Origin: Clostridia bacterium | GTDB lineage: Bacteria > Bacillota > Clostridia > Oscillospirales > CAG-382 | DNA length: 64,000 nt | Direction: 5' to 3' | Assembly: GCA_017397955.1 (NCBI GenBank) | Contig: JAFQHL010000045.1 | Coordinates: 104,764-168,763, forward strand | Shown: positions 18,608 to 21,256 of the stretch, in pieces | How the letters are laid out: each line of letters starts with the position of its first letter | Numbering within the stretch: position 1 is the first letter of the stretch | The notes under the pieces: generated by a model | The model's input: only the letters and a program-made list of their open reading frames with translations | What the model was told of the DNA's origin: nothing | Databases searched by the model: none | Translations under genes and position numbers: made by a program

Positions 18608-18656
18608 GTTGCGGGAGCAGGAGTCAAACCTACGCCCGTTTGCGGTGCCCGAAAAA
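18608..18656 (-). repeat. displaced tRNA-fMet 3'-end fragment plus 22-nt junction core (att-like remnant)
   Basis: 18608-18634 GTTGCGGGAGCAGGAGTCAAACCTACG matches the last ~27 nt of the tRNA at 21181-21208 with 3 T-loop changes. It is followed by CCCGTTTGCGGTGCCCGAAAAA, the same core seen at 20965 and 19948. Confidence 0.75.
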
Positions 18657-18663
18657 GATGCCG

Positions 18664-19389
18664 TTATCTAGAATAATATTTCCAAAGATTTGCCAAGGAG
18701 TGTTTCGCTTTTCTGATTTTCTCTATTTCGTCGAAAGTATACAAATCGGTGACAGCAGAAGAATAGATTTCAAATTTTTTACAATCCAAATAAAAGCCAT
18801 ACTCTTTTTCACTTATATAAACAATGTTTTGTAGACTGTCTTTTACCAACTCTCCAACGAAGAATTTATAGGCAACGCCACTTTGAGGTTCCCTCATGTA
18901 TCCCAAAAGGAATACCCTGTTTTCTTCGCAATTATATTCAATAGCCTTCAAAACAACATTGTAATCACTATATAGAACTCTCTTCTTCAAAGAAAAATCT
19001 GATGTATCATATACGGAAAGTGCAGTTTTACAACTGTCGATATGTCGTTCTATATTATAAAACTCTGTGCAGTCGGGGGAAAAGCAAAAATTATCATCCT
19101 GCGAACCGTTAACTTTTGAAAAACGGAATTTTTTTATAAGTGTGTAAGATTCAAGCGAATAAACCGCAAGCCTACCTTCCGTTGACTTCACAACAAAAAT
19201 TTTTCCATCAGGTGAAATCATAGGAGAATAAGCATATCTCAAATCCTTGAATTTTGCAAGCTCTTTGCCGTCTTTGTCATATAAATAAACTGTTTGTCCT
19301 GTGCAGCCAACGGAATATTCACCGTTTGAGGTAAAGCCTACAAAGTTTCTCATCTTTACACCGTCATTCATTTGTTTTTTGAAATTCAT
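18664..19389 (-). CDS. hypothetical protein (beta-propeller-like repeats?)
   Basis: 241-aa ORF with recurring G-x-hydrophobic-S/Y-D motifs and no recognisable family. Lies inside the tRNA-flanked cassette. Confidence 0.5.
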   Translation of the reverse strand: MNFKKQMNDGVKMRNFVGFTSNGEYSVGCTGQTVYLYDKDGKELAKFKDLRYAYSPMISPDGKIFVVKSTEGRLAVYSLESYTLIKKFRFSKVNGSQDDNFCFSPDCTEFYNIERHIDSCKTALSVYDTSDFSLKKRVLYSDYNVVLKAIEYNCEENRVFLLGYMREPQSGVAYKFFVGELVKDSLQNIVYISEKEYGFYLDCKKFEIYSSAVTDLYTFDEIEKIRKAKHSLANLWKYYSR

Positions 19390-19441
19390 CGTAATCTCGG
19401 AGTAATTTTGGTTCTTATCAAATCAAGTATGCCATTTCTAA

Positions 19442-19855
19442 TTATCCATATTTTTCGATAGTTTTACGATAGTATTTACGGATCATTTCCGTTGTTTTTT
19501 TATTTTTAGGAATACAAGCTATCTCGTGAAAGGGGATCTTTGTTTTGAAATAAACAATTTCATATTCTCGCCACCACGGAAAGCATTTGTCGCAATGATC
19601 CTCAATATGTTTAATATCTTTCCAAGATAAAAATGTTTTCAAACCGAAGCAATATCTGACGGTAATGCCTTCCGATGAAAAAGTATAGCCGTTTGGCATA
19701 ATTAAAGCATAACCTAGAATTAAAATAATGCAGGTAGATATAATTGCTATAGATATACCTGTTTCTTCGCCCAAAGTCATAAATCCAAGTAGAATCAAAA
19801 CGAAAAACAGCAACACAAAAAATATCCAACGTTTGTTAATAATTGTTTTCTTCAT
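19442..19855 (-). CDS. hypothetical membrane protein (2 TM + soluble tail)
   Basis: 137 aa; N-terminal hydrophobic segments WIFFVLLFFVLILLGF and IAIISTCIILILGYALI. Confidence 0.5.
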   Translation of the reverse strand: MKKTIINKRWIFFVLLFFVLILLGFMTLGEETGISIAIISTCIILILGYALIMPNGYTFSSEGITVRYCFGLKTFLSWKDIKHIEDHCDKCFPWWREYEIVYFKTKIPFHEIACIPKNKKTTEMIRKYYRKTIEKYG

Positions 19856-19947
19856 TTGTTTTCCTTTGCAGTGTTGATTGAAGTTATTATATCAAACTTT
19901 TAACTAAAAATCAATGATATTACTTCCCTTAATTCTTTTCCCTCCGT

Positions 19948-20164
19948 CCGTTTGCGGTGCCCGAAAAAATCTTCGCATTCGTAGGTGCTTGATTTTTTCT
20001 AACGCTGCACCCAAAACTCCTCGTTGTATCCGCCGCAGGCGGCGCTTCGGAGTTTTGACCTCCGAGTTATTCGCCCTTCGGGCTCATAACCCGTCGGTCA
20101 TCGCACCAACCACACTTCAGAACCAAAACGAAAAACCACCCTGTTTGGGTGGTTTTTCGTTTTG
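19948..20164 (+). repeat. structured ~215-bp repeat, copy B (with terminal intrinsic-terminator hairpin)
   Basis: About 90% identical by eye to 20965-21179 over the first ~150 nt. Ends in the AAAAACCACCC-TGTT-TGGGTGGTTTTT hairpin (20131-20157). Confidence 0.8.
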
Positions 20165-20189
20165 AGTAGAGGTGCCGAAAAAGATGCAT

Positions 20190-20702
20190 CTATTTGTTTT
20201 TCTTTTCAAATTTCCGCAACCACTTAAATGCAGTTATAAGCTGGCGATTTATCTCGTTGCAAATTTCAACGGCAGTCTCATCATTGAATTTTTGCACAAG
20301 TCGATATCCCCTAGGGGGTACGAAATTTGCTGCATGTTTTTCGCTTACGTTATGATATATTTTTCCAAAAAAGATAGTGCGTTTAGCATATAAATCTCTA
20401 TAATAGAACCAACCGTCATACATCCCCTCCAGGCGATATCTTTCATTGGTATTCCAAACTGTCAGTTGTTCTATACCCAAGCCATCCCATTCTACATAGT
20501 TTTTATTGGGTGAATCAGGGAAAACACAAGATACCTCAATGGTAAAAGAGCCGCCCCATTTATTTGTTTGAATGCTGATGAGTTCGATGTGATCTGTGAA
20601 CGTTTTGCGAAAATGAGGGTACTTACCCTTAAACCCCTCCTCCACAAGCGGAGCGATAACTAATTTTTTTAGATAAGATTTCATTATTTCATTGTTAGTC
20701 AT
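20190..20702 (-). CDS. DUF4304-like hypothetical protein
   Basis: MTNNEIMKSYLKKLVIAPLVEEGFKGKYPHFRK...WGGSFTIEV resembles the DUF4304 N-terminus. The start is set at the Met after AAGGGGTGAAGAC. Confidence 0.55.
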   Translation of the reverse strand: MTNNEIMKSYLKKLVIAPLVEEGFKGKYPHFRKTFTDHIELISIQTNKWGGSFTIEVSCVFPDSPNKNYVEWDGLGIEQLTVWNTNERYRLEGMYDGWFYYRDLYAKRTIFFGKIYHNVSEKHAANFVPPRGYRLVQKFNDETAVEICNEINRQLITAFKWLRKFEKKNK

Positions 20703-20936
20703 GTCTTCACCCCTTGGCAATCTGTTGACACAATTATACCACCAAATCGCTTACTTTTCAATCTAAAAAAGCTTTTTGCCACGGCAAAAAGCTACATCTG
20801 ATACCTTTTCACTATTCACTATTACTTATTACTTCCAAAAAAATTCCCTTGCAGAGATTAGTGAAGAGTTAAAAGTGAAGAGTGAAGAGTGAAGAGGTAA
20901 AAAAATACCCTCGGAACAAGTCCGAGGGATTTTTCT

Positions 20937-21179
20937 GGTTGCGGGAGCAGGATTTGAACCTACGCCCGTTTGCGGTGCCCGAAAAAATCTTCGCATCCGT
21001 GGGTGCTTGATTTTTTCGACCGCGGCACCCAAAACTCCTCGCTGTATCCGCCGCAGGCGGCGCCTCGGAGTTTTGACCTCCGAGTTATTCGCCCTTCGGG
21101 CTCATAACCCGTCGGTCGTAGGTCACCAAACTTATAAATCAAAACGAAAAAACCACCCTGTAGGGGTGGTTTTTCATTT
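20937..21179 (+). repeat. 28-nt exact copy of the tRNA-fMet 3' end followed by structured repeat copy A
   Basis: 20937-20964 is identical to 21181-21208. 20965-21179 holds the core CCCGTTTGCGGTGCCCGAAAAA, long helices, an anticodon-arm look-alike (21096-21123) and a terminator hairpin (21147-21171). Confidence 0.85.
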
Positions 21180-21256
21180 TGGTTGCGGGAGCAGGATTTG
21201 AACCTACGACCTCCGGGTTATGAGCCCGACGAGCTACCGGACTGCTCTATCCCGCG
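21180..21256 (-). tRNA. initiator tRNA-fMet (anticodon CAU), CCA encoded
   Basis: The reverse complement reads CGCGGGATAGAGCAGTCCGGTAGCTCGTCGGGCTCATAACCCGGAGGTCGTAGGTTCAAATCCTGCTCCCGCAACCA. It has the C1xA72 mismatch and three G-C pairs in the anticodon stem (initiator hallmarks), and is close to E. coli tRNA-fMet as I recall it. Confidence 0.95.

Follow-up and report, generated by a model that had tools for sequence, protein, structure and literature searches.

Displaced initiator-tRNA 3' ends and a covarying two-hairpin module in a gut Clostridia bacterium, possibly an accretion array of non-autonomous integrative elements

Directly behind the initiator-tRNA gene (tRNA-fMet) of a Clostridia bacterium of the order Oscillospirales, in a 64,000-nucleotide stretch of contig JAFQHL010000045.1 (the whole stretch analysed, hereafter the window), the 3' end of the tRNA recurs in displaced copies that delimit a series of short insertions. 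The reading favoured here, which we hold tentatively and a little short of an even chance, is that positions 18608-21179 form an accretion array of non-autonomous integrative elements at the 3' end of the initiator tRNA, served by a recombinase in trans. The repeats and the core sequence that adjoins them are real and non-random, and the fold of a module of two hairpins within the insertions is strongly supported; what the module does, and how the array was built, is argued below against several alternatives.

The methionine tRNA is identified as the initiator because it combines a C1/A72 mismatch with three G-C pairs in the anticodon stem. Its last 29 nt, TGGTTGCGGGAGCAGGATTTGAACCTACG, recur exactly at 20936-20964, where shuffled sequences give an expectation of 0; the exact copy reported in a preliminary description of this DNA thus stands, although it had been given as 28 nt starting at 20937. 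A second displaced 3' end at 18608-18634 carries the three T-loop substitutions already noted for it and has also lost its CCA. Both fragments adjoin, as had been stated, a 22-nt core, CCCGTTTGCGGTGCCCGAAAAA, which is exact at 18635-18656 and 20965-20986 and occurs with one mismatch at 19947-19968 (0.00 expected by chance). This third core had been placed at 19948-19969 and described as free of any tRNA piece; it is present, but lies one base lower and retains a tRNA remnant, CGGAGG. The degenerate core formerly given as 20170-20186 is likewise present, as GGTGCCGAAAAAGATGC, one base further on at 20171-20187. The features of the array, in tRNA sense, are as follows.

21306-21394, minus strand: tRNA-Leu(UAA), found by ARAGORN and Rfam; leads the tRNA operon, with a consensus promoter at 21408-21436
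21180-21256, minus strand: intact initiator tRNA-Met(CAT), found by ARAGORN and Rfam; its last 29 nt (21180-21208) are the proximal direct repeat
21147-21175, either strand: term1, a bidirectional intrinsic terminator immediately past the CCA end
21075-21123, minus strand: H1 foldback, an antisense copy of tRNA positions ~28-55 (21091-21123), then a degenerate sense copy of positions 28-49
21031-21074, minus strand: H2; outer stem variable, internal loop GAGCG / AUACAGCGAG conserved, hairpin CCGCC-NGN-GGCGG at the apex
20965-21030, minus strand: H3, GU-GCN-GCGGU-CGAAAAAA, a variable inner hairpin, then UUUUUUCG-GGC-ACCGC-AA-AC; the core 20965-20986 is its 3' strand
20965-21079, minus strand: covariance-model match to H2 and H3 of unit A
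20936-20964, minus strand: frag1, the exact 29-nt T arm-to-CCA copy and distal repeat of insertion E1 (244-bp repeat period)
20908-20928, either strand: term2, a second bidirectional terminator that opens E2; also found past the fragment in related locus L040
20190-20761, minus strand: E2 cargo, with a promoter at 20733-20761 and a DUF4304 gene at 20190-20720
20164-20187, minus strand: E2 right end, GCATC-TTTTTCGG-CACC-TCTACTC, a decayed core with a probable tRNA remnant
19941-20165, minus strand: E3, or unit B, with a term1-like hairpin (20124-20164), an inverted CCA end and tRNA copy, H1, H2 and H3
19947-20061, minus strand: covariance-model match to H2 and H3 of unit B, with the core at 19947-19968 and the tRNA piece reduced to CGGAGG
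18664-19914, minus strand: E4 cargo, with a promoter at 19886-19914 and genes for a 137-aa membrane protein (19442-19855) and a 241-aa protein (18664-19389)
18608-18661, minus strand: E4 right end, GCATC followed by the core (18635-18656) and frag2
18608-18634, minus strand: frag2, the tRNA-fMet 3' end with three T-loop substitutions and without CCA

Four insertions thus follow one another: E1 (unit A, 215 bp and gene-less), E2 (the DUF4304 gene), E3 (unit B, also gene-less) and E4 (the 137-aa and 241-aa genes). The two gene-less intervals, 20965-21179 and 19941-20165, both of about 215 bp, are copies of one unit with 94% identity over 159 nt, and in tRNA sense each runs through the bidirectional terminator term1, an inverted copy of the 3' part of the tRNA, H1, H2 and H3. 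Each unit also has the anticodon arm in inverted form, in H1 (complementarity between 21091-21123 and 21202-21234 is 88%), and the H1 stem holds two conserved tandem G.A mismatches. Term1 is assigned to E1 because a like terminator precedes the units in the related loci examined. All four right ends have the core adjoining CG[G/T]AGG of the T stem, and their shared sequence, TTTTTCGGGCACCGCAAACGG, stands directly against the T-arm copy of the tRNA. In the gene-bearing insertions, here and in the related locus L014, (G/A)CATC immediately precedes the core and the left end starts right after CG[G/T/A]AGG. The repeats of E1 are perfect over 29 nt and those of the outer insertions are eroded; past frag2 comes native flank, then the promoter of a gene for a 641-aa dockerin protein.

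The three genes that the preliminary description had placed in the intervals (a DUF4304-like gene, a small membrane protein and a 241-aa unknown) are all recovered among the open reading frames (ORFs) and Pfam matches, the DUF4304 protein having 176 aa (E=1e-9). Pfam results for the five ORFs in or beside the array comprise DUF4304, a weak bPH, a weak beta-propeller and a dockerin match, and leave a 199-aa ORF without any. Consensus-like promoters precede the tRNA operon and the DUF4304, 137-aa and 641-aa genes, those of the DUF4304 and 137-aa genes being near-consensus (11/12 and 10/12 matches); no promoter precedes any unit. The terminator hairpins previously seen in the intervals are borne out, as term1, term2 and the inner hairpin of H3 score as terminators on either strand.

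That the tRNA fragments mark tandem insertions at the tRNA 3' end, as had been proposed from the window, is supported by comparison of homologous loci across species. At locus L039 the site is empty, the native flank ACAATGCGAA..GATATCGG..CCACAGCGGTT lying directly behind tRNA-fMet; at L042 the same flank appears only after the last displaced fragment, 2.55 kb downstream, and at L011 it is found well downstream, behind a degenerate tRNA 3' end. Occupancy differs in this way between species, and so does content: L040 holds tRNA, unit, fragment and terminator with no cargo; L024 an RtcB cassette; L014 SPFH, NfeD and MerR genes, a unit, RtcB and a 137-aa/241-aa pair; L037 a TPR gene; L042 a SocA/Panacea pair; and L011 an HTH-methyltransferase with an S51 peptidase. 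Identity to L014 is 96% for the E4 block taken together with the core on either side of it, against 85% for the unit next to it and 78% for the tRNA region. Two complete units stand in tandem behind the tRNA in L123, where the outer fragment belongs to a different tRNA-fMet allele, with compensatory T-stem differences; the displaced fragment in L039 likewise derives from a different allele.

The RtcB RNA-ligase gene, with its own promoter, directly adjoins a unit in both L014 (1856-3028) and L024 (6414-7583); given the tRNA-like pieces nearby, a link of this cassette to tRNA repair is imaginable. The junction at the right end of E2, which also precedes the unit in L014 and L037, is kept in four species as GCATC-TTTT(T)CGG-CACC-TCTACTC-AAAA (window 20164-20187, L014 ~3505-3530, L037 ~6445-6470, L024 ~6340-6365), in each of them between the end of a cassette and a terminator; it looks like a core and tRNA fragment that have undergone the same two deletions. 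Between term2 and the DUF4304 promoter, window positions 20853-20902 hold three to four 14-nt tandem repeats (AGTGAAGAGT-like), and these repeats also occupy the same relative place in L040 and L037.

In the favoured reading, insertion would proceed by site-specific recombination in the T arm, each incoming element bringing a new T arm-to-CCA segment and its own terminator and thereby regenerating the tRNA. The old 3' end would be pushed outward at every insertion, E1, nearest the tRNA, being the youngest, and the recombinase would be encoded elsewhere and act in trans. Among possible sub-mechanisms, entry as a single strand, folded so that its stem mimics the target tRNA, is the favoured one because the unit holds an inverted and then a direct tRNA copy, as such an exchange would leave them. 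Recombination with a folded single strand as partner is known for CTXphi at dif and for the attC sites of integrons. Tandem-inversion duplication by template switching at the terminator was also considered and was set aside, because the first and the third tRNA copy are followed by different terminators.

The H2-H3 module measures about 115 nt, and its fold was obtained from the alignment and RNAalifold. In the alignment, the outer stem of H2 varies, its internal loop (GAGCG / AUNCAGCGAG) is conserved and its apex reads CCGCC-NGN-GGCGG. Searched with the covariance model, R1, the window has exactly two full copies; 64 copies are found across related loci. In the R1 alignment, which is fitted to the model so that the figures favour the fold, 97.3% of cells are paired and double changes occur in 15 of 20 pairs, a value reached by none of 500 shuffles; pairing in slid controls is 41-62%. 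In divergent copies CGAAAAAA/UUUUUUCG gives way to CUGCA/UGCAG or CGAAACCG/CGGUUUCG, and GCGGU/ACCGC to GCGGC/GCCGC; the sequence of the basal H3 helix is nearly invariant across families. The core, which forms the 3' strand of this helix, is more than an attP remnant: it belongs to a module that is structured and covaries. From copy to copy, this module opens with (A/T)GGG and closes with CAAACGG(G/A), with the GGG shared between tandem copies; GG(G) is found at both boundaries and terminal inverted repeats at neither. A general closing stem between the flanks of the module is not indicated, their complementarity not being enriched (mean z about 0). Of the two strands, that in tRNA sense is the more stably folded one in 28 of 33 copies. 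The predicted fold of the 244-nt unit as a whole is a compact multi-helix junction (z=-6.0 as RNA, z=-6.7 as DNA); H3 resembles an A-tract/hairpin/U-tract terminator in most copies, and an acceptor-T-arm minihelix that leaves a CAACCA tail free could form at the 3' end of the unit.

A scan of the window against Rfam 15 (E<=1) returns two tRNAs above threshold; its other matches are weak and terminator-like, and no family corresponds to the module. Direct reading against group II intron domain V, kink-turns, small ribozymes, Y-RNA-like RNAs, TnpB/IscB guide RNA and the IS110 bridge RNA yields no fit, and a literature search by keyword and sequence string found no description of the family.

Genome and metagenome collections were scanned with exact seeds only. 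With a 20-nt core seed, species-representative genomes give 49 loci, of which 47 are in metagenome-assembled genomes (MAGs) of Oscillospirales, mostly from ruminant guts and from families that include Acutalibacteraceae, Oscillospiraceae and Faecousia; the metagenome scan gives 41 loci, about 15 of them real and most of the others chance matches in soil. In all, the module was found in more than 45 MAGs of Oscillospirales. It is multi-copy within genomes: five contigs of one MAG carry it, and many copies occur in species such as that of the Acutalibacteraceae MAG JAZRFL01. Many copies lie at contig ends and some in tandem arrays of 113-nt period. In many loci with enough upstream sequence, the unit follows a tRNA gene of its own strand at a distance of 165-340 nt; these genes are for fMet, Ser, Leu, Pro and Asn tRNAs, and all 15 tRNA-linked copies share the orientation of the tRNA. 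The same anatomy is found behind all five types: terminator, inverted tRNA copy, direct tRNA copy, module and displaced fragment. In each case it is the local tRNA that both the inverted and the direct piece match. These two copies pair with each other as H1 in the window or as a closing stem in L036, L008 and L025; in L036, behind tRNA-Pro, TTCAAGTCCTGTCATCCCGACCA, a terminator and TGGTCTATGACAGGACTTGAA make the tRNA 3' end and its inverted copy, CCA included, a single long palindrome with the terminator at its centre. The position of the module is immediately 3' of the GG(G), also GGAGG, of the direct tRNA copy, and the junction point is the boundary between stem and loop of the T arm or of the anticodon arm.

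Further structures occur in similar settings. Scaffolds unlike H2-H3 are bracketed by inverted and direct copies of the local tRNA T arm in L014 (6440-6860) and, just past the tRNAs, in L036 and L025; the tRNA-matched bracket is therefore more general than the module. The core followed by a tRNA-Asn T-stem piece is seen at the starts of L002 and L028, in L020 (646-700) and at the end of L031; the T loop of this piece is split by different insertions, of ~85 nt in L002/L028 and ~18 nt in L020, and L031 continues into unrelated sequence, so that, as far as these sequences go, the T loops of displaced fragments look like recurrent insertion points. Finally, L021 and L041, both from one buffalo-caecum MAG, have identical upstream sequence (a gene end and terminator) and are apparently the same locus; one unit has an additional structured sub-module of ~110 nt inside H2, also seen in L005 and L018, and the other is without it, a difference that suggests nested mobile modules.

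Several observations weigh against the accretion reading. No recombinase linked to the core has been found. The preliminary description had reported none within 18.6-21.3 kb, and this extends to the 64-kb window and to about 60 related loci, an absence that for its part agrees with an enzyme acting in trans: a crude regular-expression search for tyrosine- and serine-recombinase motifs is negative for every ORF of at least 120 aa in the window, for 211 ORFs of 47 loci and for the metagenome loci checked, the real module loci among the latter (~15) having no recombinase, and the Pfam results of the five ORFs in or beside the array include no recombinase domain. Clustering the ORFs of the 47 loci for a recurrent neighbour protein brings up only translations of the repeat and ordinary chromosomal genes. 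Nor was the core, which the preliminary description had proposed to seek in the attP of an integrase, found in any integrase-bearing element: the exact 20-nt core has 0 matches in viral contigs, BLAST against plasmids and phages finds tRNA 3' ends and, beyond these, only three unverified gut 'phage' contigs with a divergent module in an ABC operon and no integrase, and no related autonomous integrative and conjugative element (ICE) or integrative and mobilizable element (IME) appears in the 49 genome loci, the 41 metagenome loci or the viral contigs. Shorter seeds of 16 and 17 nt gave 39 loci in viral contigs, none of which fits the covariance model, and these were discarded as chance matches.

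The same balance is affected by the anatomy of the array and by the distribution of the module. The expected polymorphism at the fMet locus, evident across species in the empty site and the variable cargo, is lacking within the strain: contigs of the same strain, retrieved by exact-protein look-ups, all have the arrangement of the window, and the short ones break at the units. E2 and E4, the insertions with genes, hold just the 22-nt half of H3 and lack an inverted tRNA arm; they cannot be explained by an attachment (att) site made of a folded strand. Nor does a simple CTX-like model predict where the module sits, exactly between the direct tRNA copy and the displaced end. Other copies of the module have no tRNA gene in the stretch examined, their neighbours being genes for ribosomal protein S2, SecA, EPSP synthase, sporulation proteins and ABC transporters; one divergent copy, L141, has the permease gene of an ABC operon on one side and the binding-protein gene on the other, begins at the stop codon and contains no tRNA-derived sequence. 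H2-H3 may thus be an independent repeat or RNA merely lodged in att remnants, and RecA recombination between repeats of 115-215 bp could also shuffle cassettes.

The possibility that H2-H3 is a structured RNA, which we consider unlikely though still to be taken seriously, draws on much of this evidence. The module would then be transcribed together with the tRNA or gene upstream of it and act as a stabiliser in a 3'-UTR or within an operon, as a processing site or terminator, or as a small RNA whose 3' end is tRNA-like; the fragments and cassettes would result from unrelated recombination among copies. Strong covariation and the more stable tRNA-sense strand are in its favour, as are the co-orientation of 15 of 15 tRNA-linked copies, the orientation of close upstream ORFs (nine on the strand of the unit, two on the opposite one), the copy inside the ABC operon that begins at the stop codon, the position of promoterless units behind a strong tRNA promoter, the terminator-like H3 of most copies and the possible minihelix with its CAACCA tail. 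The orientation bias is, however, also expected of strand-specific insertion of DNA, the near-invariant sequence of the basal H3 helix points to a protein that reads sequence and not to structure alone, no Rfam family matches, and the exact 29-nt repeats, the element-borne terminators, the empty and occupied sites and the fragments of foreign alleles are left unexplained. A known parallel is the sib/tI retroregulator of phage lambda, where a structured RNA element adjoins the attachment site and stands at the far end of the element after integration; by comparison, there is no int gene here to regulate, the more stable strand is the tRNA-sense one, and copies occur away from att sites.

Where copies lie among ordinary chromosomal genes, the module recalls a mobile repeat. 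It could be a miniature non-autonomous transposon, of the kind of repetitive extragenic palindromic (REP) sequences and bacterial interspersed mosaic elements (BIMEs), of MITEs (miniature inverted-repeat transposable elements) or derived from IS200/IS605, that inserts 3' of GG(G), often at hairpin stem/loop junctions such as those of the tRNA T and anticodon arms, with a single-copy transposase elsewhere and with the tRNA fragments as older att remnants that it colonised; this we hold to be improbable, without thinking it negligible. Several copies per genome, copies at contig ends, tandem arrays of 113-nt period, the conserved boundaries with their shared GGG, the placement of tRNA-linked copies right after the GGG or GGAGG of the direct copy and the 110-nt difference between L021 and L041 all agree with it, and the module is, like REP/BIME repeats, REP doublets forming hairpins (REPINs) and MITEs, a short, structured, multi-copy intergenic repeat, often just past genes and sometimes within operons, that occurs in mosaics and tandem arrays and whose transposase, if any, lies elsewhere. 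Unlike those repeats, it is larger (~115 nt, with two different hairpins), strongly biased in orientation and tied to tRNA 3' ends with flanks that match the local tRNA, and no RAYT or other transposase has been identified, none being seen in ~60 loci. The ends of IS200/IS605 elements normally share their hairpin. Here, H2 is unlike H3, terminal inverted repeats are absent and flank complementarity is not enriched; cassettes that end in only the 3' half of H3, and a terminator and inverted tRNA copy that travel with the unit, also find no explanation in such a transposon.

Direct tRNA repeats and element-borne terminators are typical of prophages and integrative elements, and both are present in the array. 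The units could on this ground be decayed ends of integrase-bearing elements in which internal deletion left attL, a short arm and attR, a derivation that we judge very unlikely. Two loci lend it some substance: in L042 the C-terminal remnant of a large serine recombinase lies right past the displaced fragment (2944-3432), and in L097 tRNA-fMet, unit and fragment stand beside an island with resolvase remnants. Against this, dozens of species share the same gene-less anatomy of ~215 bp, which is seen with five tRNA types and has no intact parent, the covarying stems imply selection on the fold, copies occur away from att context and viral contigs give no matches. The preliminary description had left the choice between decayed islands and very small satellites mobilised in trans; the unit of ~215 bp that it mentioned is indeed there, in two copies, but these are not simply decayed islands, because their anatomy is fixed behind five tRNA types and the module is multi-copy among ordinary chromosomal genes. 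The large serine recombinase of L042 was also considered as the enzyme itself, which is not established: its homologues fall into ~90 protein clusters (P0001-P0091), some with PF13408 or PF07508, all of them short C-terminal remnants, 60-95% identical and none full length. Recombinase remnants occur in L096 and L097 within decayed islands that contain helicase, methylase and resolvase pieces, and L097 is the only other such locus with a unit.

Among known systems, genomic islands at tRNA genes and cis-mobilizable elements (CIMEs) such as those of Streptococcus ICEs share with the array an intact, regenerated tRNA, nested repeats of its 3' fragment, tandem accretion, att-like repeats without recombination genes and cargo that varies between relatives. 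The intact tRNA with a distal 3' repeat (29/29 nt at 20936-20964) and the att-flanked interval free of recombination and transfer genes are both found; the integrase within the element that characterises tRNA islands is not, and the exact-seed search gave no related autonomous ICE or IME for a CIME. The array departs from these systems in this respect, and also in its two 215-bp gene-less insertions, the shared 22-nt hairpin end and the five tRNA types. A second comparison, with CTXphi-type integrative mobile elements exploiting Xer (IMEXs) and with integron attC sites, rests on structure: adjacent inverted and direct copies of the target can form a stem that mimics it, mismatches are conserved in the hairpin and its terminal structure varies, there is a strand bias, no recombinase lies in the element, and arrays grow by addition. 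Two inverted target-like sites that can form a stem, as in a folded IMEX attP, are present as a structural resemblance only. In contrast to both CTXphi IMEXs and integrons, the target is a tRNA gene and not dif or attI, the gene-bearing insertions are without the hairpin, and the single-stranded form would be an assumption of the model. The array has no R/L box consensus and, at its head, a tRNA operon in place of intI, attI and Pc; there is no complete attC with RYYYAAC and GTTRRRY boxes, E2 and E4 ending in the 3' half of H3, and the cassettes are not mostly promoterless but carry promoters of their own.

The surroundings of the array include the 641-aa dockerin-bearing protein (16507-18432) and, at 23161-27354, sugar-nucleotide genes, which Pfam, applied to contig L050 of the same strain, assigns to the NTP_transferase, epimerase/dehydratase, aminotransferase and ATP-grasp families. 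Such a context fits a fibre-degrading relative of Oscillospiraceae from the ruminant gut.

As a nucleic-acid motif, H2-H3 is new, widespread and well-covarying, and it has no match in Rfam. The repeats have a practical effect, since metagenome assemblies break at them in tRNA loci; the small accessory genes that they carry include a toxin-antitoxin pair, RtcB and DUF4304. The RNA element and the miniature transposon may each be partly true alongside the accretion reading. Identification of the partner protein would bring to light either a recombinase that recognises a hairpin beside a tRNA-derived site, or a new RNA element downstream of tRNAs and other genes, or a new miniature transposon. 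A bolder version, decidedly a long shot, would have gene-less elements of ~160-250 nt enter tRNA genes as folded single strands whose stem copies the target tRNA, and the conserved H3 end serve as the landing pad on which promoter-bearing cassettes accumulate, with the recombinase elsewhere, an integron- or IMEX-like platform at tRNA genes in Firmicutes with no integrase of its own. Should the accretion reading hold, the tRNA genes of many uncultured gut Clostridia would carry a device for the capture of cassettes that, having no integrase, escapes the usual programs for finding islands and integrons.

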